DNA from: a virus
Lineage: Duplodnaviria; Caudoviricetes
IMG/VR virus record: IMGVR_UViG_3300042445_000578
Location: 1-57,503 of that record
Length of the DNA stretch: 57,503 nucleotides
Reading direction: 5' to 3' (one strand)
Positions 33,420-56,061 of this stretch are shown here, in pieces. A program made the position numbers and the translations under genes. The notes below the pieces were generated by a model. It worked only from the letters and a program-made list of their open reading frames with translations, was not told the origin of the DNA and searched no databases. Each line of letters starts with the position of its first letter. The first letter of the stretch is position 1.

Positions 33420-34910
33420 TTAGTAATATGCTACTTTGCGTCTAAAGTAAACAGGATCGTCTACTTCATCCGTTTGTAATCTTAAAAAGCCGCCTTTTCT
33501 AAAGCGTATCAGGGCTTGAGTCGCAGAGTCAACCAAGTCATCGTGATCCGAATTAGGAAATGCAGCCATCTCTTCCATCACCTCTTCTGCCCATCGCGTA
33601 CGAGGACACCATATCTTGCCAGAAGCAAACAAGTCTGATACGGAGTTTACTCTCGAAATCTTATCATTACCACGGGTTGGTGTAAATTCTTGTACAGGAA
33701 TACCCATCCTTCTTAATTCAAAAACTAGCGGCGCACCAGAGGCTTTTGCCTCAACAATGAACGCATCGGGTTCCCATTCACGGTACATTTGCAAAGCTCG
33801 TTCTTTTAATTCAGGAAACTCTAGCCGTTCTTTATAAGCATCCAAAAGGATCACGTTCACATCGTCTGGATTCTCATCTTTATAAAAGACTCCCCATGTC
33901 GTGCAAGCAGAATAGTCTGACCGTTCATTCTTAGTAAACGCTGTGTCCCATGACTGGATAATAAATTCGCATGGTGGGGGCGTCTCATGTTCCCATTCCT
34001 TCCACCACTCGCGTTTAACAATCGCACCCGCTTCAGATGTCGGTTGCTGCTGGTACTGCGCAGACCATTTTGAAACGGGAAGTTCGTTACGTAATTTAAC
34101 CAACTCTTCATACGACCAAAACTCTGGCCATAAAGGTTTCTCGCTCGGTAAAATGGCTGGTAAATCAATTTGCTCCCATTCATCTCCATCCCTTTCAATC
34201 GCGCTTTGTAAAATCCTGCCCGTTAAATCTCGTTTACCCCAACGAGTCATAACGATCACAATTGCACCGCCTGGTTGCAAACGTTGGCGTGGACCAGATG
34301 AATACCATTCATAAACCTTGTCGTACACCTCAGGGTTACTAGCTGCTAAGGCTGCCTCTTGCTCCGAGTGCGGATCGTCAATAACCAATAAATCAGCACC
34401 TTTACCTGTAACAGTACCGCCAACACCAATAGCAAAATACTCACCGTTCCCGCTAGTAGACCAACGACCAGCAGCTTTACTATCAGACCTAAGATTGACA
34501 TTTGGAAACACCTTTGAATAAACATCACCATCCACCAAGTTACGTACCTTACGACCAAAGCCAACCGCTAGTTCGGCTGTGTTAGAACACTGAATGATCT
34601 TCTTATTAGGGAATCTACCTAGGAACCAAGCTGGCAATAAATACGAGGCAAACTCTGACTTTGTGTGTCGCGGAGGCATATTAATGATCAGCCGCTTAAT
34701 CTTCCCAGCTGCTATGTCCTCAAACTTCTTAGCCATCAAAGCGTGATGCCTGCCATGAATGAACCCAGGCCACATGACCTTAACAAAGTCCATAAAACTG
34801 ACTTGCGCTTTTTCCCTGGTCACAGCATCTGAATACGCCTGTGCCATTGCAAGTAAAGACTCACGCTCGCCCTCAGGCAGCTTATCTATGAGTTCTTCTA
34901 ATTTACTCAA
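33420..34910 (-). CDS. terL: Terminase large subunit
   Basis: INMPPRHTKS Walker A, LLVIDDP Walker B, QSWDTAF and HDDLVDS nuclease motifs. Confidence 0.92.
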   Translation of the reverse strand: MSKLEELIDKLPEGERESLLAMAQAYSDAVTREKAQVSFMDFVKVMWPGFIHGRHHALMAKKFEDIAAGKIKRLIINMPPRHTKSEFASYLLPAWFLGRFPNKKIIQCSNTAELAVGFGRKVRNLVDGDVYSKVFPNVNLRSDSKAAGRWSTSGNGEYFAIGVGGTVTGKGADLLVIDDPHSEQEAALAASNPEVYDKVYEWYSSGPRQRLQPGGAIVIVMTRWGKRDLTGRILQSAIERDGDEWEQIDLPAILPSEKPLWPEFWSYEELVKLRNELPVSKWSAQYQQQPTSEAGAIVKREWWKEWEHETPPPCEFIIQSWDTAFTKNERSDYSACTTWGVFYKDENPDDVNVILLDAYKERLEFPELKERALQMYREWEPDAFIVEAKASGAPLVFELRRMGIPVQEFTPTRGNDKISRVNSVSDLFASGKIWCPRTRWAEEVMEEMAAFPNSDHDDLVDSATQALIRFRKGGFLRLQTDEVDDPVYFRRKVAYY

Positions 34911-35388: not shown

Positions 35389-36288
35389 CTATGCCTTTTC
35401 TACCCAAAAAGTGACGGGGGGTGTTTCTGTAGCGCTATTACCCTCGTCCTGGGAAATTTTTATACCCCCCTCCCCCACTCTAACAGATGTTAGAGTTGCA
35501 GGGTCTTGATTTTGAAGGGAAATTTCTAAAGTTGGTGATTGAGTGAGTGGATTACTATGCAATGAGGCCACTGTGCAATCGTCAAATTTTGGGGGTGATA
35601 CCCCTGTCGGTGCGGAGAAATCGCCATCGGAAACCCCTACGCCACCCACATCAATCGCATCTACATCCATAACACCATCATCTGATACATTAACTGGGCT
35701 TGCATCATCATTAACCTGTGCTTCGCCAGTCAACTCTGCCAGTAATGACTCCGCAGAATACTCAGCAATCTTTTTATCCCCACTAGAATTCATAGCCAGT
35801 GATAACGATTTGATTAGCTTCTCTCGCATGGCTTCGCTACTGTCTGTCTTGATATGCTCTACTCGATTGGTGAAGAGTGATACCTCTGTTATCTTGCCAA
35901 GCAACTCCAGTGCCTTCAACTGTTGTGCGTGTGGGACATCATCATCCAATGTCTTTTGAGTTAACTTATGGATTATGTGCATCCTCAAGTGAGCAGGCGT
36001 TTGATATTTATTCGCTTCCATTGCCACCTTGAAGGCATCTACTTGGGTTTGTATTGCGTCATTCTTTAATAGCTTCTGCCCATTGCGTGATTGTGTGTGT
36101 GGTTTGCCTGTTGAGTTATGACTATTCCTGTATGCCTGAGCCTTGCTCTCGCCCTTGGCTATCTCCTCTGCGAACTTCATCTGCTTTGGGGTTAGCTTGG
36201 TTGTCTTACTGCTTGCACCCAGTAGCAGAGTATTCATAGGCATTGCCTTGAGTCCTTCAGCTATTTGTTTGCGTGTTAGTTTGGTCAT
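35389..36288 (-). CDS. Terminase small subunit-like protein
   Basis: LTPKQMKFAEEI..G....QAY HTH, LKALELLGK; upstream of terL. Confidence 0.65.
   Translation of the reverse strand: MTKLTRKQIAEGLKAMPMNTLLLGASSKTTKLTPKQMKFAEEIAKGESKAQAYRNSHNSTGKPHTQSRNGQKLLKNDAIQTQVDAFKVAMEANKYQTPAHLRMHIIHKLTQKTLDDDVPHAQQLKALELLGKITEVSLFTNRVEHIKTDSSEAMREKLIKSLSLAMNSSGDKKIAEYSAESLLAELTGEAQVNDDASPVNVSDDGVMDVDAIDVGGVGVSDGDFSAPTGVSPPKFDDCTVASLHSNPLTQSPTLEISLQNQDPATLTSVRVGEGGIKISQDEGNSATETPPVTFWVEKA
35477..35496. repeat. Palindrome ACTCTAAC-agat-GTTAGAGT (copy 2 of 4)
   Basis: Perfect inverted repeat. Confidence 0.85.
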
Positions 36289-36422
36289 AGGTATTTAATG
36301 AGGATTTAGTAGTAGTGATAATAGGACAAGACGATAGCTATGTGCAACTGGTGTCTGTCTATTGGATATCTTTGGTATCTCTCTCTGTATGAGTTTGACT
36401 CACTGGACTGTATCGCTTCGCT

Positions 36423-36442
36423 ACTCTAACAAGCGTTAGAGT
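36423..36442. repeat. Palindrome ACTCTAAC-aagc-GTTAGAGT (copy 3 of 4)
   Basis: Perfect inverted repeat in the divergent intergenic region. Confidence 0.85.
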
Positions 36443-36576
36443 GCAATTTAGGCGTGTTTTAGAGCCATGCTTTCCCTTTTTATGCCCAGTTATCCGCAAG
36501 CAAGCCCTTCCTGAGCTGTATCAAATGCCTTGGAAGCCTTTGTTTATATAGAGTGAAAATATTTGTTTAAAAGGTG

Positions 36577-36606
36577 TTGACAAGTCAATACAGATTTATT
36601 GACAAT
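36577..36606 (+). promoter_or_regulatory. Putative early sigma70 promoter
   Basis: TTGACA (36577)-N18-GACAAT with AT-rich upstream sequence; a second TTGACA at 36599. Confidence 0.5.
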
Positions 36607-36648
36607 GAAGTCTGTTGTATCGGTTTAATTAAATAAAAGGGGAATTAA

Positions 36649-36867
36649 ATGAAAGACGAACAAGTGTTAATACAAGCAGTGCGTGTCGTAGCTAATGATA
36701 GATACGATAAGGGTTGGTCTGTGATTGTTGAGTCTTGGACTGATGGCGATATTCTTGAAGTGTTATCAGAGTGCCAGTTTGATTTGTTTAAGACTGTTGA
36801 AGAGCTACAGTCCTATGTTGATGCTTACCTAGACAAGCAAGACGATATTGAATCAACTGCGTTTTAA
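36649..36867 (+). CDS. Small acidic early protein
   Basis: AAGGGG RBS; 72 aa. Confidence 0.7.
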   Translation: MKDEQVLIQAVRVVANDRYDKGWSVIVESWTDGDILEVLSECQFDLFKTVEELQSYVDAYLDKQDDIESTAF

Positions 36868-36884
36868 CCAAAGGGGAAATACAT

Positions 36885-37148
36885 ATGAAAGACTTAGAGA
36901 AAACAATACGAGTAGCTGATAGATTCATGGCAATCACAACTCAAGACTTACCACAAGACCTAGCAGTAGATATCGCTATTCGTTTAGCCTACTGCCACAT
37001 GGATACACCATTGGACTTGGATGCCATGTTAGATACTGATGACCTATTCTCATTCAAGCATGATGTTGTTGGTATCTATAACCATTGGGATAACGATAGC
37101 AAGAAGCTGACTGGATGCTTCATGCCACGATTCGCCCAGTCAATCTGA
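36885..37148 (+). CDS. Early protein (DUF6874-like)
   Basis: PLDLDAML..DD.F.F.HDV.GI..H.D....L..CF.PRFA. Confidence 0.6.
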   Translation: MKDLEKTIRVADRFMAITTQDLPQDLAVDIAIRLAYCHMDTPLDLDAMLDTDDLFSFKHDVVGIYNHWDNDSKKLTGCFMPRFAQSI

Positions 37149-37191
37149 TGATGGCTTGAGTAGCCGAAACAGTCGTAAGACTGTCATTGAC
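37139..37191 (+). ncRNA. Type I hammerhead ribozyme 1
   Basis: GTCAAT-CTGATGA-T-GGCT(TGAGT)AGCC-GAAA-CAGTC(GTAA)GACTG-TC^ATTGAC; all three stems pair; predicted cleavage after C37185 (GUC). Confidence 0.88.
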
Positions 37192-37212
37192 ATAACAAAG
37201 GGGAAAATTATT

Positions 37213-37437
37213 ATGACAAGCAATTATCACAATGCCAGTATGGTTGATGTAGCGACTGCTATCGTTGACCGATTGATTGACAACTACGAAGGCAAAGGCG
37301 AATTCATCACTGAATTCTATGAGCTATCTGAACTGATTGGCAAAGCTATTGCCAACTCTAACCACTTCAATCGCATTGAAGAAATCGCCATGGAAAATGG
37401 TGTTGTTGAATCTGACTACTTTGAAGGGGAAGAATAA
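37213..37437 (+). CDS. Small acidic early protein
   Basis: AAGGGG RBS before ATG 37213. Confidence 0.65.
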   Translation: MTSNYHNASMVDVATAIVDRLIDNYEGKGEFITEFYELSELIGKAIANSNHFNRIEEIAMENGVVESDYFEGEE

Positions 37438-37712
37438 TGGCTAACTGGAAACATGAAATAGATGTTGCTGACTTGTATGCCAAGTATGAGTCTGCTGATA
37501 TTACCGATAGCGAAATGATTAACAGTCTGCACAAGGTGTTTACTGCCTTCATTGATGCTAACCCACAACTCAACGACATTGTTGACTTCTACCGATTCTC
37601 TGATGCCGTTGATGAGCTACTAATCGCTGATGACATTGAAGAAGCTGACTATGCCTTGCAGTCAATCTATGACTTCGCTGATGACAATCGTATTTGGATT
37701 AAAACCTTCTAA
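37437..37712 (+). CDS. Small acidic early protein
   Basis: 91 aa; IYDFADDNRIWI. Confidence 0.7.
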   Translation: MANWKHEIDVADLYAKYESADITDSEMINSLHKVFTAFIDANPQLNDIVDFYRFSDAVDELLIADDIEEADYALQSIYDFADDNRIWIKTF

Positions 37713-37722
37713 GGGGATGATG

Positions 37723-37887
37723 ATGAAACACTTTATTTACTTTTTAAACCTTGCTATTTTTGGTCTGTTTATGCTCTCTATCTATGTGGTATCAGAGAAT
37801 CCCGCACCTTTGTATATCTTTACTTTAATTGCATCAACTGTTGGTCTGTGCCTGATGTTTGCCTTGCACTGCGAAACTTCAGACTAA
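37723..37887 (+). CDS. Small 2-TM membrane protein
   Basis: AAGGGG RBS; two hydrophobic helices. Confidence 0.6.
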   Translation: MKHFIYFLNLAIFGLFMLSIYVVSENPAPLYIFTLIASTVGLCLMFALHCETSD

Positions 37888-37948
37888 CTGATGATGGGGT
37901 GAATCCCCGAAACTGGGTGCATAGCTACAAGTGCATCCAGTCTTAGTC
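37882..37948 (+). ncRNA. Type I hammerhead ribozyme 2
   Basis: GACTAA-CTGATGA-T-GGGG(TGAAT)CCCC-GAAA-CTGGGTGCAT(AGCTACAA)GTGCATCCAG-TC^TTAGTC; predicted cleavage after C37942 (GUC). Confidence 0.88.
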
Positions 37949-37959
37949 AACTGCTAGGA
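37946..37959 (+). promoter_or_regulatory. GTCAACTGCTAGGA leader/RBS element (putative sRNA target)
   Basis: 14-nt perfect complement of the candidate sRNA; includes the AGGA(G) RBS of the ORF at 37967. Confidence 0.7.
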
Positions 37960-37966
37960 GATACAA

Positions 37967-38155
37967 ATGATTCAGTGGTATATCAATTCAAAGCCTGTGC
38001 CTAAAGCTATTGCTAGGGTTCACTTGGAAAACGCCATGCCTTATCGGACTGCAAGAGAGATTGCATCCGCTATGACTGGTGCATTGAAAAAGGATGAATT
38101 CTTTGTCAAGGTATGTGCTGACTATGGCGTGCATTACGCTAACTTAACTCATTAA
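37967..38155 (+). CDS. Early hypothetical protein
   Basis: AGGAG RBS; 62 aa. Confidence 0.65.
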   Translation: MIQWYINSKPVPKAIARVHLENAMPYRTAREIASAMTGALKKDEFFVKVCADYGVHYANLTH

Positions 38156-38165
38156 GGGGAAACTA

Positions 38166-38345
38166 ATGAAATTTATGATTGAAATCCGCACCGATAACTC
38201 AGCGTATGAGCAGTCTTTTTATGATGAGATTATTGCCAACTTGCAACTGGTTATCAGGATGGTTGATTCTCAGTTTAAGGTAGGTGTCATTCACGATACC
38301 AATGGCAACAAGGTAGGCAAATTTTTTACAGTGGAAGGGGATTAA
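38166..38345 (+). CDS. Early hypothetical protein
   Basis: AAGGGG RBS; MKFMIEIRTDNSAY...DTNGNKVG (59 aa, not in ORF track). Confidence 0.65.
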   Translation: MKFMIEIRTDNSAYEQSFYDEIIANLQLVIRMVDSQFKVGVIHDTNGNKVGKFFTVEGD

Positions 38346-38346
38346 C

Positions 38347-38916
38347 ATGGGATGGACTGGTTCACAAAAGTTTGACTCACTGCCAACAAAGGACTGGTTA
38401 GTAAAGGAATTCACTAACGAGTCTGATACTCACAAGTGGGAATTAACGGATGTATCCATGCGTGGCAACACTGCGTATGGCATCCACAAGGTGCAAGACA
38501 AAGCTACTGGGATTATCTTGGCTGAAGCCATCATTATCCTGACTCGCAAAGAGGATGGTTGGCTTTACTTCAAGGAAATGGGGGAAACTGTGCATCCCTA
38601 CTACTATGATGCACCGAAGAAGCTACTGGATAAACTGGATGCTCTCTTTCCACCATTTAATGACAATGCCAAGGCATGGCGTGATGCCTGTCGTGCAAAA
38701 GCCACCAAGAAGAAATCTGCCAAGCTAGTTATTGGGGATGTGGTCAAGTTTGCCAAGCCAATGAGCTTTGGGCAATTCTCTGAGGATACCTTTACCTTTG
38801 AAAGCTACTTTGGTAAGGATTCTTTCAGAGCCACCAATGGTGTGCTATGTCGCATTACCAAGTGGAAGCAGAGGGATTTTGAGGTTTTATCAACAAAAGG
38901 GGAAAGCAATGAATGA
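38347..38916 (+). CDS. Early protein (DUF6927-like)
   Basis: MGW.., KEMGETVHPYYYDAP..LL, AKAWR..C. Confidence 0.6.
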   Translation: MGWTGSQKFDSLPTKDWLVKEFTNESDTHKWELTDVSMRGNTAYGIHKVQDKATGIILAEAIIILTRKEDGWLYFKEMGETVHPYYYDAPKKLLDKLDALFPPFNDNAKAWRDACRAKATKKKSAKLVIGDVVKFAKPMSFGQFSEDTFTFESYFGKDSFRATNGVLCRITKWKQRDFEVLSTKGESNE

Positions 38917-39175
38917 ATTATCAAAGATGAATGAATTGGAGATTGAGGATCACTGGACTAATGAAGCCAGTAGTCTATTACTAGGCAAAAAGATAACTAG
39001 GGTTCGCTATGTAAGCCATAGAGAAGCAGAAGACATGGATTGGACTTCAAGACCTGTTGCATTTATGTTGGAAACTGGTATTTGGTTTTTCGCATCCATG
39101 GATGATGAAGGCAATGATGGTGGTGCGTTGTTTACTTCGCATCCTGAGAAATCAGTCCTTCCAGTGTTGAGGTAA
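38909..39175 (+). CDS. Early hypothetical protein
   Basis: AAGGGG RBS; SMDDEGNDGGALF. Confidence 0.65.
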   Translation: MNELSKMNELEIEDHWTNEASSLLLGKKITRVRYVSHREAEDMDWTSRPVAFMLETGIWFFASMDDEGNDGGALFTSHPEKSVLPVLR

Positions 39176-39177
39176 TT

Positions 39178-39387
39178 ATGAAAACAACGATTAAGGGGTT
39201 TGATTTGTCTGTCGTGGAATTGGATAACGACTCTGTTGCAATCAATTTTGATAAGGATGGTGCAACTGGTGGTTATATCAATATCAAGATGGATGATGAT
39301 GGTGTGGTGGTAGATGTGTTTAATGCCTGTGGGGACTGTATTAGCTCTACATGGTCTTTTTATAACGAACTTATGCAAGGGGAATAA
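39178..39387 (+). CDS. Small acidic early protein
   Basis: GAGG RBS; DDDGVVVDVF. Confidence 0.6.
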   Translation: MKTTIKGFDLSVVELDNDSVAINFDKDGATGGYINIKMDDDGVVVDVFNACGDCISSTWSFYNELMQGE

Positions 39388-39388
39388 C

Positions 39389-39724
39389 ATGGAATTGAAT
39401 CAATTTACTGGGACTGAAAACTATCATAGGTCATGTATGTTTGTGCCTAAGATGGTGCATACGGATGGCGTTGACTACTTCTGCTCTGAAGCCAGTGCCT
39501 ACTGGTTTTTGGATATTGTGGCAACTGAAGTATTTCCATTGCAAGAGGTGGATTACTTCTTGTCAATCAAGATGGTGGTGGCTGATGGCAAAGCCACAAT
39601 CACTGTGGAAGATGGGGACTGCAAGGTTTTAAAGACTAAGAACATTGAATTCACTGACTGCCCTGAAGGGGAGTATGAATTCTTTTTGACTGACAATGTT
39701 TTGATGCTAACTAGCGAATACTAA
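39389..39724 (+). CDS. Early protein (DUF6876-like)
   Basis: QFTGTENY, TDGV, AYWFLD, IEFTD.P, LML.SEY. Confidence 0.6.
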   Translation: MELNQFTGTENYHRSCMFVPKMVHTDGVDYFCSEASAYWFLDIVATEVFPLQEVDYFLSIKMVVADGKATITVEDGDCKVLKTKNIEFTDCPEGEYEFFLTDNVLMLTSEY

Positions 39725-39734
39725 GGGGGACACC

Positions 39735-40181
39735 ATGGGATTAGATATGTATTTAACTGCCAAGCGTTATGTTTGGAATTACAAAGATGAGGACAAAGCC
39801 TTGCAAGACCAACTGGATGATGTGATGAAAGATGATTTATCTGATGGCATGAGAGTCAAAGAAGTAGCGGTAGATGCTTTCTATTGGCGTAAAGCTAACC
39901 ATATTCACAAGTGGTTTGTGGATAACTGCCAAGGGGGTGAGGATGATTGCCAAGAATACTGGGTTGAAGCTAAACAACTGGTGCGACTCAAAGACCTGTG
40001 CGAGTCTGTCTTACTGCAAAAGGATGTGGGCTTATTGCCTACTGCGGATGGCTTCTTCTTTGGATCAACTGACTATGACGATTGGTATTGGTCTGAGATT
40101 GAAGAAACTGTTAAGGGACTTGAGAAAGTATTGAAACTGGATACTGCCAAGTGGGACTTCTACTATCGTGCTTCATGGTGA
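39735..40181 (+). CDS. Conserved phage early protein (MGLDMYL family)
   Basis: MGLDMYL, YWRKANHIHKWF, GFFFGS, FYYRASW. Confidence 0.65.
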   Translation: MGLDMYLTAKRYVWNYKDEDKALQDQLDDVMKDDLSDGMRVKEVAVDAFYWRKANHIHKWFVDNCQGGEDDCQEYWVEAKQLVRLKDLCESVLLQKDVGLLPTADGFFFGSTDYDDWYWSEIEETVKGLEKVLKLDTAKWDFYYRASW

Positions 40182-40186
40182 ATAAC

Positions 40187-40444
40187 ATGGGCAAATACAC
40201 TGTATATGCCTATGATGCCGAGATTGAACTGGGTGGGGAAACCTACTCAGTTTTACTGGGCATTGAGGAAGAAGGACACCCAAGCAATGCCTATGAGGAC
40301 TCATGGTGCGATAACAAGATTTACTACTACATGACTGATGCTGAACTAGCTGAACTCAAGAGTGGTGATGAGCTTGATGAGGGGACTATCTTGTTATCCA
40401 TTGATAAAGACAATCCGACTATCTATGAGGTGGAATATGAGTAA
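40187..40444 (+). CDS. Small acidic early protein
   Basis: Very D/E-rich ORF in operon. Confidence 0.6.
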   Translation: MGKYTVYAYDAEIELGGETYSVLLGIEEEGHPSNAYEDSWCDNKIYYYMTDAELAELKSGDELDEGTILLSIDKDNPTIYEVEYE

Positions 40445-40619
40445 TTTTTACATTGCGTATGCAACATCCAAGGTTTATCACCAAATAAAGGTGGTGGCTG
40501 AATCAGAAGAAGATGCAAAGCGTTTGATTGCTGAAGGCAATTACTATGCTTGGGATGAACTGGATAATGAAGATTTTCAAATACAAGAAGTAATTTTTGA
40601 TGGAGTGCATGATGCCTAA
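40437..40619 (+). CDS. Small acidic protein, DpnD/PcfM-like motif family
   Basis: VVAESEEDAKRL. Confidence 0.55.
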   Translation: MSNFYIAYATSKVYHQIKVVAESEEDAKRLIAEGNYYAWDELDNEDFQIQEVIFDGVHDA

Positions 40620-40797
40620 ATATAGCGTGTTAATGACCACTGCTGACTATGTGGAAGTGGAAGCAACTGATCCAAGGGATGCTGAAATGGTGGCTTGGGG
40701 TATGTATAAGGAAGGCGATATACGACCTGAACACCCTGAGTTTGTTTGTGAAGAAGCCGATTTAATTGAAGGGGATGATGATGGCAATGACCTATAA
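40609..40797 (+). CDS. Small acidic protein, DpnD/PcfM-like motif family
   Basis: MPKYSV..VEVEATDPRDAEMVA. Confidence 0.55.
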   Translation: MMPKYSVLMTTADYVEVEATDPRDAEMVAWGMYKEGDIRPEHPEFVCEEADLIEGDDDGNDL

Positions 40798-41071
40798 ATC
40801 AAATAGAAGTGAAAACCAATGGGACATATGGCATAGCAATGTCAATGGGGATGAAATACTGCATACATTCGCAACTGAAGAAGAAGCAGATTACTACTTG
40901 AAAACTGGTAAAAAACTCATAAGCAAAGCCATGGTGGAAGGATGGCTAGGGTCTGACAACATGAGTGTTGATGATTTTCTTGACCTATTAACTGAAATCA
41001 TCAATGAGGATTATCCATTGGATATCTTCAGAGCTGATGTTTTGGAATTTATGGAGATGGAAAATGCCTAG
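40781..41071 (+). CDS. Small acidic early protein
   Basis: AAGGGG RBS; FATEEEA. Confidence 0.6.
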   Translation: MAMTYKSNRSENQWDIWHSNVNGDEILHTFATEEEADYYLKTGKKLISKAMVEGWLGSDNMSVDDFLDLLTEIINEDYPLDIFRADVLEFMEMENA

Positions 41072-41237
41072 TTTTACTGCGAGTTTTTCAAGTGAAATAA
41101 GAGTATTGATTGATGCTGACACCATAGAACAAGCAGAAGAAATTGCTAGGGAAATGGAATTGAATCATTCAGATTTACAGAAAAACGGAGAACACTGGGG
41201 AACAGTGTTTTACGACATTAACGAATTTGAGGAGTGA
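41064..41237 (+). CDS. Small acidic protein, DpnD/PcfM-like motif family
   Basis: IDADTIEQAEEIA. Confidence 0.55.
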   Translation: MPSFTASFSSEIRVLIDADTIEQAEEIAREMELNHSDLQKNGEHWGTVFYDINEFEE

Positions 41238-41386
41238 TGATGCCGAAGTTTGAGATTACCTACAAGGAAGTAATTGAAGCTGAAAGCGAAGAGCAAGCGA
41301 TTGAGTGGTTATTTGTATATCTAGCTGATTGCTTGAGGGATGATGATGTATCTGTATTTAACTTTTTTGAACTTAAAGGGGAATGA
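41237..41386 (+). CDS. Small acidic protein, DpnD/PcfM-like motif family
   Basis: MPKFEITYKEVIEAESEEQAIEW (not in ORF track); GGAG RBS. Confidence 0.55.
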   Translation: MMPKFEITYKEVIEAESEEQAIEWLFVYLADCLRDDDVSVFNFFELKGE

Positions 41387-41388
41387 CT

Positions 41389-41943
41389 ATGCCTAACTGG
41401 TGCGATAACAACTTGTATTTAGAACACAATGATCCTGAGATGATTAAGAAGGCGAAAGAAGCATGGGAGTCTGGGAAGTTTTTAGCGACTTTTGTGCCTG
41501 AGCCTGATTACACAAAGGTAAAAGTAAAGCCTACTTTTGATAACAGTCATATTACTGGTAAGCCAGTGGCTGACTTTGTTAATCCTGACCAAGCATGGTG
41601 GGATTGGCGAGTGCAGAACTGGGGGACTAAATGGGACATTGGATATGATGCTGACCGAAGCAATCATGCTCAAGGATGCGATAAAACCATGTTTGTTTAC
41701 TTTGACTCTGCTTGGAGTCCACCAACTGATGCCTATGCCAAATTAGCTGAACTAGGGTTTTTGGTGAAAGCATTTTATTACGAAGGTGGATGTGCCTTCT
41801 GCGGTTCATGGATAGATGGTGTTGAGGACTTCCACAACATTGAAGAACAGACTCAGGCATGGGTAAAAGAGAATATTCCTAAATACATTGATGATGAGAT
41901 GGATATATCCATGCAATATGAATTAGATGAGGAGTGGGAATAA
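41389..41943 (+). CDS. DUF1281/YubB-like ferredoxin-fold protein
   Basis: MPNWC.N.L, WWDWRVQNWGTKWD, FDSAWSPP, YYEGG..F.G. Confidence 0.7.
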   Translation: MPNWCDNNLYLEHNDPEMIKKAKEAWESGKFLATFVPEPDYTKVKVKPTFDNSHITGKPVADFVNPDQAWWDWRVQNWGTKWDIGYDADRSNHAQGCDKTMFVYFDSAWSPPTDAYAKLAELGFLVKAFYYEGGCAFCGSWIDGVEDFHNIEEQTQAWVKENIPKYIDDEMDISMQYELDEEWE

Positions 41944-42233
41944 TGGGTGCGGTGGTATTTATGAATGTGGGACTGGGAAGCAGTGCCAAGAAAGCCTTTG
42001 ATAGTCTAGTTTACGAAGCTAGGTATCAGCATGGGCATGGTGGATACACTGGGACTATTGCAGAAAAGAACTCTTTTGTAATGATCCTATTAGCTGAAGG
42101 ACTGGATGCCTTCCAGTATGCCGAACAACTGATTGATGATGATGACAAAAGGGTATGCGATAAATGGGGGGATGCTGGGTGCATCCATATTAAAGATGAT
42201 GAATACTTATTCTTTGGATGGGCTTCAGAATGA
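41943..42233 (+). CDS. Early hypothetical protein
   Basis: GHGGYTGTIAEK, DKWG.AGC, FFGWASE. Confidence 0.6.
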   Translation: MGAVVFMNVGLGSSAKKAFDSLVYEARYQHGHGGYTGTIAEKNSFVMILLAEGLDAFQYAEQLIDDDDKRVCDKWGDAGCIHIKDDEYLFFGWASE

Positions 42234-42448
42234 CTAGAGATGAAATGATTAAAGAATTGATTGATGATGATATCAATGGGTGGTATGACAGAGATGATAA
42301 GGATGCCTTCTTCTCATACATCATGCTTAATGGGTGGACTGGATACAAGACTCAATCAGATGAAGAGCTAACGGAAGAGTGCTTCAATAGGGGAATCCTA
42401 GATGATACGCATCCATCCTTTGATCCAGTGCTAAAGAATGAGGTGTGA
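42230..42448 (+). CDS. Small acidic early protein
   Basis: GW.GY...SDEEL..E. Confidence 0.55.
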   Translation: MTRDEMIKELIDDDINGWYDRDDKDAFFSYIMLNGWTGYKTQSDEELTEECFNRGILDDTHPSFDPVLKNEV

Positions 42449-42774
42449 TGATGAGTAAATGCTCTTTTTGCGACCATGATGACGGATACCTGTGCTTTTA
42501 CTGTGAGGATTACTTGAAGGATACAGTGAAGGATGTTATCCACAAATTCAAGAATGAAATCTTGGATACTGGGGACTGGTGGTATGCAGTTAATACTGCC
42601 CACGATACCTATGATGTCAATGTGCATTGCTTGGATGATGAAAACTGGGAAAAGCCTGATGCCATATTCAGCATCAATCTGTATAGGCTTGACCTAGGCG
42701 ATACAAGTAGCTATCACTCTAGGGTGCAGTATGACCTTGATCCAATGACTAGAAAGGAAATTAGACTGCTATGA
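42448..42774 (+). CDS. Early protein with N-terminal Cys pairs
   Basis: CSFC...CFYC; GAGG RBS. Confidence 0.55.
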   Translation: MMSKCSFCDHDDGYLCFYCEDYLKDTVKDVIHKFKNEILDTGDWWYAVNTAHDTYDVNVHCLDDENWEKPDAIFSINLYRLDLGDTSSYHSRVQYDLDPMTRKEIRLL

Positions 42775-42944
42775 GAAGATACGAAGTTAAGATTTGCACC
42801 AGTGCGACTACTGTTGTGGTGGTGGATGCCAGTGATGCGGATGAAGCCTGTGAAATGGCGATTGACCTAATCAATGAAGATGATATTACCTTTGATGGCG
42901 ATTGGGATATTGTGGATGTTTGTGAAGTAGATCCAAGGGACTGA
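42771..42944 (+). CDS. Small acidic protein, DpnD/PcfM-like motif family
   Basis: MRRYEV..VVVDASDADEACEMA (not in ORF track). Confidence 0.55.
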   Translation: MRRYEVKICTSATTVVVVDASDADEACEMAIDLINEDDITFDGDWDIVDVCEVDPRD

Positions 42945-42945
42945 C

Positions 42946-43227
42946 ATGAATTTAAGACTAGCAAAAGGCAAAGTGCCGATTGATACTGGGGATGGGTATG
43001 TGTTTATACCCTTCCCTGATGAAGAGGAGTTTTGCCAACTGTATAACAACTATACCCCTATGGATAGACGGAAGCGATACTGGAAGGTGTTGTCTGAAAG
43101 AATCCAAGGTAAAACACTGAAGGACAGTGGATTACCTCATGGGATTAGTAAACAAAGGGTTAGGGAGATTGAAGCTAAGTTTATGAGATTGATCACAACG
43201 GCTTACTTTTGTAAACCAAAGGTTTGA
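42946..43227 (+). CDS. Sigma-70 region-4-like HTH protein
   Basis: R..GKTLKD.G..HGISKQRVREIEAK. Confidence 0.6.
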   Translation: MNLRLAKGKVPIDTGDGYVFIPFPDEEEFCQLYNNYTPMDRRKRYWKVLSERIQGKTLKDSGLPHGISKQRVREIEAKFMRLITTAYFCKPKV

Positions 43228-44023
43228 TTGATTGACTAGCTTTAAAAGTGCCGACTCTGAGATGGTAGTCGTTGAAATCTTCTCCAACTGTATCGGAAAT
43301 CCAATAAGGCTTGCCTGTTTTTTGGGCGGTGGATTCTCCAGTATGGTTGGAGTCGTTATCAGCAATGACGAACCCACTGGGGATGTGCCTACATATTTCT
43401 TGCATATTGCTTGCGGAAAAGCATATGTAGATGCAACACTCCAGTTTATTGGCTTGCATTACAGTCCTAATGGACAATCCAGTAGCAAAACCTTCGCAGA
43501 ATATAGGGATGCCTTTTGCACCGATCCTGAAGGATGCACCTTTAGTCTGTTGACCATACAAGAACTTCTTCTCCCCTTGCTCATTGATGAGCTGACACCC
43601 CACTACTTCCCTGTTAAATCGCATAGGTATTACCATTAACTTATCGCCTTTATCTGTGTTCCAGATCAACGATTCTTCGTCTGGGAAGCCTTTTTTTGCG
43701 AGATATTCATGCGTTTGGTGCTGACATTGAGAAATTATCCAAGTGGCTCTGGATTGAGCGTCTTTTGCCAGTTTCTGTCTTTCTGAGTCAAAACTGAGTT
43801 TTTTTCGCTGCAACTCTGGATTAAGCGCATTTCTGTCATCTGTCTTCCACATGGCTGGTTTGTCCATGGTAGCCCAATTCTGCACCCATCCAACATCTCC
43901 CATGAACTTATAACGACCATTGCGTTTGTGCGGATGGTCTTCTGTGGGGGTTGCCATCCATCTGAAAGGCGTTACATCTCCAAGAATCAAGCCATGGAGT
44001 CTTGCGAAATCTTCAAATCTCAT
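43193..44023 (-). CDS. DNA primase (TOPRIM domain)
   Basis: YLAKKG, GCQLI...GEKKFL.G, CEGFATG, IADND..G, DFND. Confidence 0.8.
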   Translation of the reverse strand: MRFEDFARLHGLILGDVTPFRWMATPTEDHPHKRNGRYKFMGDVGWVQNWATMDKPAMWKTDDRNALNPELQRKKLSFDSERQKLAKDAQSRATWIISQCQHQTHEYLAKKGFPDEESLIWNTDKGDKLMVIPMRFNREVVGCQLINEQGEKKFLYGQQTKGASFRIGAKGIPIFCEGFATGLSIRTVMQANKLECCIYICFSASNMQEICRHIPSGFVIADNDSNHTGESTAQKTGKPYWISDTVGEDFNDYHLRVGTFKASQSIKPLVYKSKPL

Positions 44024-45495
44024 TTGTTCTTACCTTTTGACCACCTGATGTTGCGTGATTTAATCCACTTTAAAGTAGCCATGGTTGGTGGAGTCGGTGC
44101 TTCAATCAGTCCCCTAGGCCATACGCCAAACTTCTCACGGTACTTGTGACTAGCCCAGTGTGGATTGTAGGCTTTCTCATTGGCTATAAAGATCAACTGG
44201 GAATAGAAGTCTTGCTTATCATCTTTCCTGACCTTGACTCCTGCCACCAACTCCTCTAAACGACCTGATACTGCATGAACTTCATTGCGTTTTTGACGGA
44301 TGTGACCGCAATTAGGACAAGTATCTGTTCCTTTGGGCCATAGGTGTTCGCATACTGGACACTTAGATTCCTTCTTTTTCTTCTCGGTTGGCTCTCTTTT
44401 GGCTTTCTCTCCCTCATTACTGAGTGTTTTTACGCCGTTTTCGTACAATTCATCCCAATCATCTTGGAATCTGAGGTAGTTTCCACTGTGATCTAGCCAT
44501 AAAGCGAACTCTTTGTCTGGATGTTGGCGCATAACTCGCCCCATTTGTTGCACATGGGATGAAAGAGATTTGCTAAACGGTCTTGCGGATATGCCAATCA
44601 TGACATCTGATACGTCAAAACCCCTTGTAAGAATGTCGGTGGCTATCAGTCCATGGATTTGTGTATCAGGCTTGGCAAAGTCTTCAATGGCTTCTTTCTT
44701 GAACTCATCATTGTCTTTGTAGCTGATGGATACAAAGTTATATCCCTTGATGGCAAACTGCTCCACAAGATCTGCTCCATGTGCCACGCCAGCACAAAAG
44801 ACAATGGTTTTTCTTGGTCTGCCAAATATCTGGTGGGTTTTATCAATCCATTCGGATACTATGTCCCCTGTTAGCTTCATTCCTCGCTCTGTGACCACAT
44901 CCCCTGACCATTCGCCAGCAATCTTCTTAGCCCCAGTCATGTCAATCTCTTTGGCAATGAAGACCTTTAATGGAGCAAGCCACTTTTTGCCTACCAAGTC
45001 TTCTGTGGTTGAACCGCATACAACATTCGTATACAAGTCCCCCAGTCCCTTAGTAAAGGGTGTGGCAGTTAAACCAATAACTCGGATGTTAGGGTTATCT
45101 TTGATGAACTCGGATGTTTGCTTTCTAGCAATATGACACTCATCCACAATCAGTAAGTCCATATCTGGAAAGTCATCTCTTCGTTCCAAGGTCTGAGCAG
45201 AACATACCTGTAGGCGTTCACGCTTGTCATATCGCCAGTGATTAGCCTGGAATACACCATGCTTTAGCCTGTATTTGTCCAGGCGTAGACTGGTTTGATC
45301 CACCAAAACAATGCGATCTAAGACCATGGCTGCGCGCTTGAACTTCTCGCCTGTAGCCTTCATCAAGGCAATGGCAACTTCTGTCTTGCCAAAGCCTGTT
45401 GGGGCATACAACAACTGTGATCTATGACCCTGACGGAAGCCTTCCCTGAGGGATTCTATGACATCTTGTTGATGTTCTCTTAGCTCTAGTTCCAT
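44020..45495 (-). CDS. Superfamily 2 DNA helicase with C-terminal Zn ribbon
   Basis: APTGFGKT, DECH, GLTATP, TRGFD, QQMGRVMR, CPVC..CPNC. Confidence 0.9.
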   Translation of the reverse strand: MELELREHQQDVIESLREGFRQGHRSQLLYAPTGFGKTEVAIALMKATGEKFKRAAMVLDRIVLVDQTSLRLDKYRLKHGVFQANHWRYDKRERLQVCSAQTLERRDDFPDMDLLIVDECHIARKQTSEFIKDNPNIRVIGLTATPFTKGLGDLYTNVVCGSTTEDLVGKKWLAPLKVFIAKEIDMTGAKKIAGEWSGDVVTERGMKLTGDIVSEWIDKTHQIFGRPRKTIVFCAGVAHGADLVEQFAIKGYNFVSISYKDNDEFKKEAIEDFAKPDTQIHGLIATDILTRGFDVSDVMIGISARPFSKSLSSHVQQMGRVMRQHPDKEFALWLDHSGNYLRFQDDWDELYENGVKTLSNEGEKAKREPTEKKKKESKCPVCEHLWPKGTDTCPNCGHIRQKRNEVHAVSGRLEELVAGVKVRKDDKQDFYSQLIFIANEKAYNPHWASHKYREKFGVWPRGLIEAPTPPTMATLKWIKSRNIRWSKGKNK

Positions 45496-45656
45496 TATTT
45501 TGTATATAAATCTGCAACTGAGTCTCTCATCTGTTTAGCCAAGAAGACAATGTTATCGGATTCAATGTCTACTGTGAGCCAGTCCTTTTTGTTGATTGCA
45601 TCATGAACCTCTCTGATGCTCATGTTTAGCTTAAGAATTGCTTCTGAATAGTCCAT
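45495..45656 (-). CDS. Hypothetical protein
   Basis: 53 aa MDYSEAILKL.., overlapping both neighbours. Confidence 0.5.
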   Translation of the reverse strand: MDYSEAILKLNMSIREVHDAINKKDWLTVDIESDNIVFLAKQMRDSVADLYTK

Positions 45657-46486
45657 TATGCTGTTTCCTTTAGTTTTCTTTTAAGTGAATTAACTGTCTT
45701 CATTAGCTCTGCGTTACGGTGCTGAAACATATCTCGGCTTTCACGCAATGATTTGTTATCAATCTCCAAGAGTCTGACTTGCTCACGCAACTCCTTGATT
45801 GTGTCTTCCACATCAATCTTCTCAATTTCTGAAGCATCCCACGCACCAATGGATATTTTGTCTTTGAGAAGGGTGACTTCCTCGTCTAACTGGGTGATAA
45901 CCTCGGTTAGCTCTTTGATTTTGTCTTCTTTCTCGTCATAGGTGGTGACATCAGGCTTGGTGGTTGGCGTTTCACGCTTACCAATGTTGCCAGTCTTCAT
46001 CTCTTTTTCTACACCATCCTTGGTGACAAACTTCTTGGTCTTTGGTTCATCCTTGATTTCCATGGATGCCTTGACTCGGCTGACCATCATGGCTGTTACG
46101 CCAACATGGGCTGCGATGCGAGCCTGTGTCCATTCCTTGTATCTTGGTTCAAGCAACATCTTTCTAACGATTTCTTTGTTGTCTTCTGGTGACATGGATA
46201 AGCCACGATCCTTGTTAGCACCGTAGGAATACTCTTTAGCATCATCCAGTGAGCCTTGGTAGACTTCTGCATCAATAGAAGCAGTGGCATTAGCCTTGGT
46301 AGCATGGTAGCGGTGGAAGCCGTCTGCAAGCCAATACTCTGCACCATCAAAGAATACGGTGACTGGTGGGAATGATGTGCCTTCACGCATGGCTTCTGCG
46401 TAATCTTTAACTACATCGTAGTTAATTTCTTTTCGTGGCTGTGTGCCACCGTCTATACGGATATTAAGAATGTTGAGTGTTTTCAT
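45656..46486 (-). CDS. ParB/Srx-domain protein with HTH and coiled coil
   Basis: TQPR, FPPVTVF, LADGFHRY.A; WTQARIAAHVGVT..MVSRV HTH. Confidence 0.8.
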   Translation of the reverse strand: MKTLNILNIRIDGGTQPRKEINYDVVKDYAEAMREGTSFPPVTVFFDGAEYWLADGFHRYHATKANATASIDAEVYQGSLDDAKEYSYGANKDRGLSMSPEDNKEIVRKMLLEPRYKEWTQARIAAHVGVTAMMVSRVKASMEIKDEPKTKKFVTKDGVEKEMKTGNIGKRETPTTKPDVTTYDEKEDKIKELTEVITQLDEEVTLLKDKISIGAWDASEIEKIDVEDTIKELREQVRLLEIDNKSLRESRDMFQHRNAELMKTVNSLKRKLKETA

Positions 46487-46772
46487 TTGTAGCTCCCATG
46501 CGAACTATGTTGTAAAAGATATTGGATAGTTCTAAAAAAGATTGATTAACGATACGCTCCTTAGGTTTTACCTTTAGATCTTCCAGGCGGAAAGCCCAAG
46601 TTGCCCTTTTACCTACAATGCGACCCTGTGTTCTGAGATAGGTCAAACGACCAGCTGCGGTGGCTGGACTAACCTTCAGAAGGTCTGCAATTTGAGATGT
46701 GGTGACTGCGCCATTTTGAGCAATGGCGTCAAGAATTTTGTCAGTGAATTCCTTGTTTTGCTTACCTGACAT
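46464..46772 (-). CDS. Winged-HTH DNA-binding protein
   Basis: ILDAI..NG.VTTSQIADLLKVS..TA..RLT.L...G.I; GGAGG RBS. Confidence 0.7.
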   Translation of the reverse strand: MSGKQNKEFTDKILDAIAQNGAVTTSQIADLLKVSPATAAGRLTYLRTQGRIVGKRATWAFRLEDLKVKPKERIVNQSFLELSNIFYNIVRMGATNENTQHS

Positions 46773-46814
46773 GGATGCCTCCGTAAGCGGATAAAGTTGT
46801 TTCCATTTGATTTT

Positions 46815-46826
46815 TCCTAGCAGTTG
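46815..46826 (-). promoter_or_regulatory. CAACTGCTAGGA element (putative sRNA target)
   Basis: 12-nt exact copy, 8 nt before the ATG of a 14-aa ORF (46806-46762). Confidence 0.65.
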
Positions 46827-46836
46827 GATGTTCAGT

Positions 46837-47022
46837 TTAAAACGGTGCTTCTTCTACGTCAATGGTTGCTACTCTCTTTGGAATGTGTTCTATCCAATAA
46901 GCTGTATCGCCATTGATGAATTCTTCTGCTTCTGTTTTAGTCTCAAAGCCACGGATTGGACCACCCCAGTCATGCACCATGTAACGGATGGCTTGGTATT
47001 TAGGTATTTTTAGTTGAATCAT
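46837..47022 (-). CDS. Hypothetical protein
   Basis: 61 aa; FETKTEAEEF, C-terminal EEAPF. Confidence 0.55.
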   Translation of the reverse strand: MIQLKIPKYQAIRYMVHDWGGPIRGFETKTEAEEFINGDTAYWIEHIPKRVATIDVEEAPF

Positions 47023-47246
47023 TTCTTTTCTGCTTTGTAATAAGTTCTTTTTATGCTTACTTTGTATTTAAGACCTGTCTCTAAGTCCTCTATCTCATTT
47101 ATTCTAAATTTATCCCACTTGTCTGGCTCATCTTCTACTGTCCATGGCTCTGATTCAATGATGTAAACGGCATCATCAATATCGTCAGCTTCAAATTCAG
47201 CCACCCACGTAGCAACCATTGAGTATGTAGCTCTGTATTTTTTCAT
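47019..47246 (-). CDS. Small acidic protein, DpnD/PcfM-like motif family
   Basis: MKKYRA..EFEADDIDDA. Confidence 0.55.
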   Translation of the reverse strand: MKKYRATYSMVATWVAEFEADDIDDAVYIIESEPWTVEDEPDKWDKFRINEIEDLETGLKYKVSIKRTYYKAEKK

Positions 47247-47383
47247 TATTTTGATTCCCCCATTAGTTCAATCGCAGCCTGCCATGCTTCCCATGCTGAC
47301 TGGGTATGTGTGTTTGTGAACACGCCATCCTCACGGGTAAGCACATAGTTATGCTCCTTTGCCCACTGTCTAAACTCTTTCAT
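47246..47383 (-). CDS. Hypothetical protein
   Basis: AGGAG RBS; MKEFRQWA...AWEAWQAA (45 aa, not in ORF track). Confidence 0.5.
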   Translation of the reverse strand: MKEFRQWAKEHNYVLTREDGVFTNTHTQSAWEAWQAAIELMGESK

Positions 47384-47489
47384 TTCACTCTCCTGTTTGT
47401 GGACGCAATACGCCCAACGCCAACGCCATTTAGCGCTATATGTAACTCAACATACTTTAGTAACATTAACGCTATATTGATGATATGAA

Positions 47490-47811
47490 GTCAGATTCCT
47501 GGTGGTGAAGACACACCTAGCCTACCTAGATGTGCCTTCAACCGTTGATTCCTGTATGGAGCCTACAGCACCCGACAGTCTTTCGTAGAGTCGGCACTAT
47601 CTTCGCCACCGACATTTGCACTGTTACATCTACTTACCCCCAGTAGTGCTTGAGTAATGATCGCTGGTGTGGTTTTGCCCCGTCCAATCACTACTTCAAT
47701 TGTTAGACGTGATTGACAAAGTGGCAATAACGCATGCCAATAAATGGCACGGTAAGTATTCACATTGTCACTTGGGAATTGTTTCAGTCCCTAAGCACGT
47801 CTAGCAGTTGA
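47490..47811 (-). other. Structured non-coding region (long leader, ncRNA or origin)
   Basis: 15-bp hairpin 47506-47540, alternative GTCGG/CCGAC helices 47572-47613, 16-bp imperfect inverted repeat 47696-47711/47796-47811 with nested stems. Confidence 0.55.
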
Positions 47812-47846
47812 GTTCACAGATTAAATGAAATAAAAATAATTTGCAA
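47801..47846 (-). promoter_or_regulatory. Sigma70 promoter with TCAACTGCTAG at about +1
   Basis: TTGCAA (47846-47841)-N17-TAATCT (47823-47818)-N6-TCAACTGCTAG; same geometry as the promoter at 56109. Confidence 0.65.
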
Positions 47847-47857
47847 CAACTATTTGC

Positions 47858-47893
47858 AAAAAGAAAAAACCCCCAGGGATTAGCTGGGGGTTT
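47858..47893 (-). terminator. Rho-independent terminator
   Basis: AAACCCCCAG-ctaatcc-CTGGGGGTTT followed by TTTCTTTTT on the minus strand. Confidence 0.8.
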
Positions 47894-47984
47894 AGTGGTG
47901 AAGGGGTCACCATGGAGGTCTTGCATTGCACAAGGTCAACTGCTAGGATGCCTAGGCTTGTCGTGGACTTGGAGGTCGTTAGAC
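47860..47984 (-). ncRNA. Candidate trans-acting antisense small RNA (~125 nt)
   Basis: Own promoter and terminator, no ORF on this strand; contains TCCTAGCAGTTGAC (antisense to the repeated leader element), GACCTCCA x2 and hairpin GGTGA-CCCCT-TCACC. Confidence 0.65.
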
Positions 47985-47990
47985 ACACTA

Positions 47991-48020
47991 AATATAGCAG
48001 AAATTCTTAACACCTGTCAA
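47991..48020 (-). promoter_or_regulatory. Sigma70 promoter of the candidate sRNA
   Basis: TTGACA (48020-48015)-N18-TATATT (47996-47991) with extended -10 TG. Confidence 0.7.
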
Positions 48021-48045
48021 CCTATAGTGTTTGTCAAGTAAATAT

Positions 48046-49096: not shown

Positions 49097-49110
49097 TTTG
49101 CTCTCTTTCT

Positions 49111-56049: not shown

Positions 56050-56061
56050 TAAATTTTCCTT

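Follow-up and report, generated by a model that had tools for sequence, protein, structure and literature searches.

A type I hammerhead motif next to a leader complementary to a candidate small RNA in the early operon of a lake-water phage

The locus

The virus record IMGVR_UViG_3300042445_000578 (Caudoviricetes) holds a whole virus genome of 57,503 bp, which was analysed at its full length and is called the window in what follows; the DNA runs containing the region discussed here are labelled as lake-water metagenomes. On the plus strand of the window an early operon of small, tightly packed open reading frames (ORFs) begins near 36649. Within it lies a hammerhead motif of type I (stem I open), HH2 (37882-37948, plus strand; 37881-37949 with its flanking A's), which was recognized from the sequence, by a descriptor scan and with a covariance model. 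HH2 is followed by a leader, UCAACUGCUAGGAG (37947-37960, plus strand), that contains the Shine-Dalgarno sequence AGGAG (37956-60) and is complementary to a candidate small RNA encoded elsewhere in the genome. This report deals with the ribozyme motif, the leader and the small RNA, and with the question of how far the three are linked.

The ORF upstream of HH2 (37717-37887, plus strand) encodes 56 amino acids when counted from the first in-frame ATG after a Shine-Dalgarno sequence, and no family was found for its product. Downstream of HH2, ORF 37967-38155 (plus strand, 62 amino acids) would be the first ORF of the RNA released by cleavage; its product had no match in PHROG and none in Pfam. 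A sister copy of the ribozyme motif, HH1 (37139-37191, plus strand; 37138-37192 with its flanking A's), starts 743 nt upstream of the start of HH2. The two motifs occupy the sole long gaps of this part of the operon (64 nt for HH1 and 79 nt for HH2), the remaining four ORF junctions in the same stretch ranging from a 1-nt overlap to a 17-nt gap, and each motif takes up the room between the stop codon before it and the ribosome-binding site after it.

Architecture and support of the two hammerheads

The 5' strand of stem I of HH2, GACUAA (37882-37887), ends in the UAA stop codon of ORF 37717-37887. It is followed by the core box CUGAUGA (37888-37894), an extra U (37895) between A9 and G10.1, a stem II of 4 bp (GGGG at 37896-99 with CCCC at 37905-08, G-C first) closed by the loop UGAAU, the GAA at 37909-11, a stem III of 11 pairs (37912-22 with 37931-41) opening with A-U, the GUC cleavage triplet (37940-42, C17 being C37942) and the 3' strand of stem I, UUAGUC (37943-48), which completes a helix of 6 bp. 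HH2 has therewith the CUGAUGA, the GAA and the GUC of the hammerhead core, from which it departs only by U37895, and its three helices have the closing pairs A15.1-U16.1 and G10.1-C11.1, with stem I open. A fold constrained to the hammerhead is feasible at -28.1 kcal/mol. The cut is predicted between C37942 and U37943, and the predicted 3' product reads UUAG-UCAACUGCUAGGAG-AUACAA-AUG, with the AUG at 37967; the leader linked to HH2 begins 4 nt past the predicted cut, as a preliminary description of this DNA, made from the letters alone, had already read it, and ends 6 nt ahead of the AUG.

HH1, with a predicted cut after C37185, is built on the same plan: the extra U is kept, the loop UGAGU matches that of HH2, and the sequences of all three stems differ. 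Its CUGAUGA box contains the stop codon UGA of ORF 36885-37148, and it precedes an ordinary AAGGGG ribosome-binding site. The preliminary description had called HH2 a second hammerhead of the same build that starts at a stop codon, and both statements were borne out.

The descriptor scan of both strands of the genome returned HH1 and HH2 and nothing else, none being added when one core mismatch was allowed; 400 dinucleotide-preserving shuffles of the genome yielded 7 loose matches in total and none as good as HH1 or HH2. The covariance model R1, made from 34 hammerheads of loci related by the large terminase protein (TerL) with the window sequences excluded, gave 68.8 bits (E 2.7e-19) for HH1 and 38 bits (E 2e-9) for HH2, the next match in the genome reaching only 12.4 bits. 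In the helices of 34 TerL-locus hammerheads 99.3% of the cells were paired (slid controls, 27-41%) and changes on both sides were found in 14 of 16 pairs, a count that is partly circular because the descriptor used for collecting the sequences itself demands pairing. The description of HH2 as a well-formed hammerhead has thus held up for its core and its helices, by model R1 and by a family that is common in relatives (see below). Judged from these features, HH2 is very probably an active hammerhead that processes the RNA of the operon. Two runs that may be of RNA contained 7-8% of the sampled words of the region, no RNA run being listed with a large share, and contigs from the two showed neither starts nor ends.

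Two side observations concern HH1. A match to a sigma-70 promoter (11 of 12 positions; TTGACA, 16 nt, TATTAT) at 37187-37214 on the plus strand is made of the 3' strand of stem I of HH1 and the conserved A, and its -10 hexamer overlaps the ATG at 37213; it is probably coincidental. In the DNA run X9 a low-depth contig jumps from 36867 to 37212 with 9 other letters in between, and this strain variant, in which the stretch 36868-37211 is affected, is devoid of ORF 36885-37148 (DUF6874) and of HH1. As judged from the variant, the ORF and HH1 behave as if they were one cassette.

A hammerhead subfamily in related phages

The genes of the large and small terminase subunits of the window lie on the minus strand (33420-34910 and 35389-36288, respectively), with a long minus-strand structural block below them. 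Through protein similarity to TerL alone 80 loci were obtained. The descriptor detected 39 hammerheads in them, all of which lay opposite to TerL and none on its own strand. A stricter filter and removal of duplicates left 37, which sit 1.9-4.9 kb from the TerL start (HH1 and HH2 of the window at 2.2 kb and 3.0 kb); at least one hammerhead was present in 24 of the 43 TerL loci that reach this zone.

All further counts for the subfamily are based on 67 distinct sequences, the two of the window included. Stem I, exactly 6 bp long, has a flanking A 5' of it in 63 of the 67 and 3' of it in 59. Thirty-eight of them carry the extra U after A9, and because this U is so widespread in otherwise intact, covarying copies, we consider it to be tolerated. 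In work of De la Pena and Flores that appeared in JBC in 2001, a U inserted at this position was reportedly tolerated or even rate-enhancing. In 49 of the 67 the start of the hammerhead coincides with the stop codon that ends an ORF of 40 codons or more, this stop codon often being the UGA inside CUGAUGA or a UAA immediately before it, and the distance from the cut to the start codon is mostly 20-31 nt (24 and 27 nt in the window). By its sequence HH2 therefore appears to belong to a phage-specific type I subfamily that is missed by the Rfam models and whose hallmarks would be a 6-bp stem I with an A/A cap, a 4-bp stem II with a U-N-A-A-U-like loop and, often, the extra U.

In L007 and L059 two hammerhead-like elements, encoded opposite to TerL, stand directly before the leader and have the core CCGAUGA, with a C in place of U4; they may be weakened or inactive variants retained in position. 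In L084, L085 and L081/L095 all 3-5 hammerheads of a contig have one identical stem I sequence, and fragments between these hammerheads would therefore have interchangeable ends.

A blastn search with 36600-38400 against a phage collection gave zero matches; no cultured relative was found. A host could not be assigned from TerL: the search of bacterial and archaeal genomes led to 11 contigs of metagenome bins with conflicting labels (Bacteroidetes, Rhodoluna, Alphaproteobacteria, Burkholiales-type and others), and the attempt was dropped.

The leader and its copies

The 14-mer leader is found at 5 sites of the genome with at most 2 mismatches (37947 and 47936 on the plus strand; 46814, 47798 and 56061 on the minus strand), where 0.33 sites are expected, and in 0 of 100 shuffles were 5 sites reached. 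The three minus-strand copies each start 6 nt after a -10 hexamer identified by eye. In a consensus promoter scan of 36000-50000, a range outside of which site 56074 lies, only 46862-46834 was listed among the leader promoters; the promoter before 47811 was not listed.

The first of these copies, CCAACUGCUAGGAA (46814-46827, minus strand), stands 6 nt after the -10 hexamer of the promoter at 46862-46834 and heads a mini-ORF and the minus-strand replication operon, which encodes a small protein, a ParB-like protein, a helicase and a primase; the small protein before the ParB-like one is predicted from its translation to be DNA-binding. The mini-ORF has 14 codons (46772-46813, minus strand) and its end overlaps the ATG of the next gene, an arrangement that suggests translational coupling through a leader peptide, and a similar start is seen in genome G001. 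The second copy, UCAACUGCUAGACG (47798-47811, minus strand), is degenerate and lies 6 nt after a -10 hexamer seen by eye, at the head of the transcript of a Betaproteobacteria-1 RNA. The third, UCAACUGCUAGGAA (56061-56074, minus strand), lies 6 nt after the -10 hexamer of a TTGACA-17-TAATCT promoter (by eye) and heads a small ORF followed by the genes of a Cas4-like exonuclease and an Erf-like protein, which form a minus-strand recombination operon.

The sequence CUAGGA is present at 1 of 114 crude gene starts of this phage, where AAGGGG-type sites are common; the leader is therefore not its usual ribosome-binding site. The core of the leader is conserved in relatives as ACUGCUAGG, and it is found 0-10 nt after promoters in the window, G001, G006, G007, G008, G010, G011 and G013. 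That the element lies at about +1 of promoters, as the preliminary description had it, is thus seen both in the window, with -10 hexamers picked by eye, and in relatives.

The Betaproteobacteria-1 RNA (RF02932; 47570-47694, minus strand; 97.4 bits, E 4e-17), here in a phage, follows closely on the small-RNA unit and is driven by the promoter with the degenerate leader copy. The order of small RNA, promoter with leader, and Betaproteobacteria-1 RNA recurs in G012, and a homologue of the RNA is present in G004. As a pointer to the host the RNA is only a hint.

The candidate small RNA

The candidate small RNA of about 125 nt is encoded at 47860-47985 on the minus strand, in a unit without ORF whose promoter and terminator are known as consensus matches only. 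The sigma-70-like promoter (47991-48020, minus strand) has TTGACA, a spacer of 18 nt and TATATT, with a TG, and agrees with the consensus in 11 of 12 positions; the anti-leader AUCCUAGCAGUUGA lies at 47949-47936, and a terminator hairpin at 47893-47867 is followed by a U run. The predicted fold has a z-score of -3.13 and leaves the anti-leader part CAGUUGA unpaired. In the Rfam scan of the window the unit had no match. Exact-match runs were used to assess pairing, and by this measure the small RNA matches four leaders of the window over 11 to 14 nt, that of HH2 being the longest match in the window (14 nt). When the small RNA was ranked by duplex energies against crude gene starts instead, the leader of HH2 ranked 6th of 132, in a ranking dominated by long-loop artefacts.

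The seed of the small RNA, CCUAGCAGU, and the leader core are invariant across lineages. Promoter-terminator units with this seed and otherwise unrelated flanks are present in G001 and G009, found via TerL or the hammerhead pattern, and in G012, G010/G013, G011 and L142, found by a pattern scan. That scan of viral contigs gave 22 loci; 11 of them (L135, L137, L138, L139, L141, L142, L143, L144, L146, L154 and L155) have, by eye, promoter-like hexamers and a terminator and reduce to 5 sequence types, and the other 11, which resemble coding or unrelated sequence, were discarded. G010, G011 and G013 contain the exact 9-mer twice each, once in an antisense unit and once in a leader with a promoter a few nt upstream of it and an ATG 5-6 nt downstream. 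All four leader-carrying genomes that are at least 90% complete (the window, G001, G010 and G011) have the antisense unit. In G003 (93% complete) and G005 there was no hammerhead and no motif on either strand, and in G002 and G004 there was no hammerhead and the motif occurred only at control level. In G004 the Betaproteobacteria-1 RNA is preceded by a different small RNA, and the scattered 9-mer matches of this genome are uninformative. The complementarity of the leader to a small RNA, on which the preliminary description had built, is thus borne out for a candidate that has a promoter and a terminator and counterparts in other phages.

How far ribozyme, leader and small RNA are linked

That hammerhead and leader lie next to each other also in relatives had been put forward as a point to be searched for, with lack of conservation named among the grounds for refuting the proposal. 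The adjacency is conserved: CUGCUAGGA occurs no more than 35 nt behind the cut in 12 of the 37 TerL-locus hammerheads. At the level of genes, 11 starts had motif and hammerhead, 19 the motif only, 21 the hammerhead only and 1008 neither, which corresponds to an odds ratio of 27.8 (p = 1e-10) in a table that rests on crude ORF calls and on related, non-independent contigs. In the 103 loci first fetched there were 48 copies of CUGCUAGGA, copies on overlapping contigs being counted separately; 14 of these lie 8-13 nt after a hammerhead cut, 2 more behind hammerheads with the CCGAUGA core, and, by eye, about 13 behind a two-hairpin element and about a dozen behind promoter-like hexamers. About 40 of the 48 copies thus stand behind a maker or marker of an RNA 5' end or behind a structured spacer, and a plain gene junction is rare. 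The position is conserved as well, the ribozyme starting at the upstream stop codon and ending a few nt before the leader.

The two-hairpin element was seen in relatives only (for example L042:6041-6107, L001:4156-4222 and L101:5140-5206, all on the minus strand) and is absent from the window. It consists of a 10-bp hairpin, an invariant GGGAUU junction and a 6-bp hairpin followed by AAUCAU, and lies between a stop codon and the leader ACUGCUAGGAG, which is the niche of the hammerhead. Compensatory changes were found in 6 of its 16 pairs (12 sequences). Rfam has no match to it; it may represent a further processing site or a ribozyme.

The preliminary description had further pointed out that the last 3 nt of stem I overlap the 14-nt stretch complementary to the small RNA, and had suggested that cleavage exposes the target or that binding of the small RNA modulates cleavage. 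The overlap exists in this phage and is not conserved in relatives, where the motif starts 8-13 nt after the cut, that is 2-7 nt past the 6-nt strand of stem I; in G001 the matching 12 nt begin 2 nt past this strand. The hairpin that competes with stem I (CUUAGU/GCUAGG), by which the non-hammerhead fold becomes the more stable one, is likewise confined to this phage. Because neither the overlap nor the competing hairpin is conserved, we adopted neither suggestion.

Interpretation

In the mechanism that we propose HH2 would be transcribed within the early plus-strand operon, would fold as soon as the 3' strand of stem I has left the polymerase, and would cut itself after C37942. The two hairpins of the ribozyme, with a 2',3'-cyclic phosphate, would then form the end of the upstream RNA, right behind the UAA of ORF 37717-37887, and the downstream RNA would begin with a 5'-OH and a 6-nt remnant of stem I and would carry the leader ACUGCUAGGAG 6 nt before the AUG of ORF 37967. 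This leader may be a special translation-initiation cassette, otherwise placed right after transcription starts, and at the same time the pairing site of the phage small RNA. Pairing should block initiation, as part of the Shine-Dalgarno sequence falls within the stretch covered by the seed CCUAGCAGU. The ribozyme would thus act as a natural insulator that breaks the translational and physical coupling to the upstream cistrons, and the insulated gene within the operon would gain the leader and the small-RNA control of the promoter-proximal replication and recombination operons. Should HH2 cleave in vivo and the small RNA be expressed, repression of ORF 37967 would be expected, and it may depend on the cut.

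That HH2 gives an internal cistron a standard leader near a 5' end, open to control by the small RNA, we hold to be about evenly balanced between right and wrong. More tentatively, a family of freshwater phages may share a small-RNA regulon whose standard 12-nt leader has to lie near the 5' end of the RNA, the ends within operons being provided by a hammerhead, or in relatives perhaps by the two-hairpin element, placed between the preceding stop codon and the leader; the genes at promoters would in this regulon obtain the 5' end of the leader from transcription itself.

Several findings weigh against these proposals. With respect to the ribozyme, the extra U deviates from the consensus hammerhead core, and by nearest-neighbour energies a competing fold (-30.8 kcal/mol) beats the hammerhead fold of HH2 by 2.7 kcal/mol. 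No canonical loop-loop contact could be named for HH2: the 6-bp stem I with the conserved A/A at its end, the 4-bp stem II and the conserved U..A-rich loop have a geometry that fits such a contact, with no specific pairing, and a possible 4-bp match of UUCA (37877-80) to UGAA in the loop of HH2 has no counterpart in HH1. The Rfam hammerhead models were silent in the window at the gathering threshold and in 36800-38300 at E <=10, and in 8 relatives there was no Rfam hammerhead match at the gathering threshold either; a relative without the extra U scored 30.8 bits with Hammerhead_1 (RF00163), for which the cut-off is 34, and the family therefore lies just under the detection line of Rfam. The partly circular count of covariation belongs here too. 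With respect to the small RNA, seed and leader never vary together in the sampled phages, and because neither of them varies there is no compensatory proof of pairing. With respect to the coupling of the two, the gene-level table has the limits given above, the complete genomes G010 and G011 have the small RNA and the leader and no hammerhead, many hammerheads precede other ribosome-binding sites, and the hammerhead of G012 precedes a different leader. The link between ribozyme and leader is statistical, not obligatory.

These last findings are what would be expected if HH2 were active but merely chopped the early RNA into pieces differing in stability or translation, with the leader as a portable strong ribosome-binding cassette that recombines among phages and with any small-RNA control independent of the cut. 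The 21 crude gene starts that have a hammerhead without the motif, as compared with 11 that have both, agree with such generic processing, as do the small-RNA/leader pairs of G010 and G011, the ordinary AAGGGG site behind HH1, and the group of L081, L091 and L095, which uses its own extended site, AACCAAGGAG, at most genes whether or not a hammerhead precedes them. Absence of the cassette of ORF and HH1 from the minor strain variant fits modular shuffling. A cassette spread in this way would, however, not be expected to be enriched behind hammerheads with an odds ratio of 27.8, nor to follow a 5'-end maker, marker or structured spacer in some 40 of 48 cases; moreover, both in the window and in G001 (by eye) the hammerhead-linked leader is the one with the longest match to the small RNA. 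We regard generic processing as possible, though doubtful.

It is unlikely that ACUGCUAGGAG is instead a protein site (for a translational repressor or activator) or a ribosome-recruiting enhancer, with the antisense copy being fortuitous or having another role. A third-party binder would be expected to leave just such a motif, invariant over divergent phages and never covarying with the antisense copy, and the 6th rank of the HH2 leader among the 132 crude starts points in the same direction. The reverse complement, however, is present in at least 5 unrelated contexts with promoter-like hexamers upstream and an intrinsic terminator downstream, these contexts have no conserved coding potential on either strand, and G010, G011 and G013 have the exact 9-mer at two places only, in the leader and in the antisense unit.

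A role of HH2 as an inactive relic that serves only as a structured spacer, cleavage being blocked by the extra U, the long stem III and the competing hairpin, is very improbable. The silence of the Rfam models and the 2.7 kcal/mol in favour of the competing fold would agree with it, and the CCGAUGA-core variants in relatives indicate some decay in the family; yet all other core positions of HH2 are intact, the extra U is found in 38 of 67 distinct members with covarying helices, and stem I can form before the competing strand is transcribed. That the 757-nt fragment from HH1 to HH2 is released to be ligated through its 5'-OH and cyclic phosphate, giving a circle or a spliced RNA, is extremely improbable. 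Such ends would suit RNA ligases, and within each of the contigs L084, L085 and L081 all hammerheads have one stem I sequence in common; in the window, however, the stem I strands of HH1 lack complementarity to those of HH2, and Perreault et al., who sought RNAs of these two kinds from prophage arrays, detected none (PMC3088659).

Comparison with known systems

Several hammerheads that flank genes of prophages cleave in vitro, and it was proposed that they process polycistronic RNA into shorter mRNAs (PMC3088659, 2011). Three prophage arrays were found to cleave during transcription in vitro, and in a halovirus, in which a hammerhead lies 13 nt before a start codon, a 5' end was mapped nearby (PMC3088659). 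Type I hammerheads are typical of bacteria and phages (PMC13725137), and reviews called their role in prokaryotes open (PMC6155905, 2017; PMC6765202).

With the type I hammerheads of bacteria and phages (RF00163; PMC3088659) HH2 shares CUGANGA, GAAA, GUC and the open stem I, as well as the location between genes of phage operons, with copies that flank short gene blocks. It differs from the RF00163 type in the extra U after A9, in a stem I of exactly 6 bp with the A/A cap and in having no nameable internal loop or pseudoknot. Compared with the hammerheads as they are described in PMC3088659, the conserved leader behind the cut and the match of this leader to a phage small RNA are new. HHphage of HF1/HF2 also lies upstream of the start codon of an early gene, with a 5' end within 3 nt of the cut (PMC3088659). 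It is an element of an archaeal virus, has core insertions near C3, is salt-dependent and stands at the head of a transcript, and the passages of that paper on HHphage describe no shared leader or small RNA (PMC3088659). RAGATH-1 (RF03152) is of type I and has a short stem I; relatives of the window match it weakly (31.6, 24.8, 23.7 and 22.7 bits), far under the cut-off of 56.3 bits, and its extra 5' hairpin is absent here.

Three further systems invite comparison. In phage T7, intercistronic cuts by RNase III process the early mRNA to messages with short leaders. They are made by a host enzyme at long hairpins, whereas the RNA considered here is predicted to cut itself, leaving a 5'-OH. The c4 RNA of P1/P7 and the sar RNA of P22 are short phage RNAs with their own promoter and terminator that block ribosome-binding sites by pairing with a leader in which the Shine-Dalgarno sequence is included. 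There is no sequence similarity to these, and in the present phage one seed matches several unlinked leaders, one of which would be made 5'-proximal by a ribozyme. RiboJ insulators are engineered, derived from the hammerhead of a satellite RNA and provided with an added hairpin. In them, too, a self-cleaving ribozyme before the ribosome-binding site leaves a fixed short 5' leader, irrespective of the upstream sequence (PMC6206723); the element described here is natural, and its place is within an operon and next to a small-RNA target.

No description of a hammerhead coupled with a leader under small-RNA control was found in the literature searched, in which subscription journals were not covered. 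HH2 by itself joins a known class of hammerheads; the new part is its arrangement with the leader and the small RNA.

Significance

The locus and its relatives add two items that are absent from Rfam, a subfamily of type I hammerheads and a structured two-hairpin element in the same niche, and provide a defined hypothesis for the role of phage hammerheads. If it is true, self-cleavage and small-RNA control are joined in one circuit, by which one small RNA would switch replication, recombination and selected early genes together, and the siting of the ribozyme exactly between stop codon and ribosome-binding site would be explained. The "ribozyme insulator" of synthetic biology would then have a natural counterpart, and prokaryotic hammerheads would have a concrete biological role.

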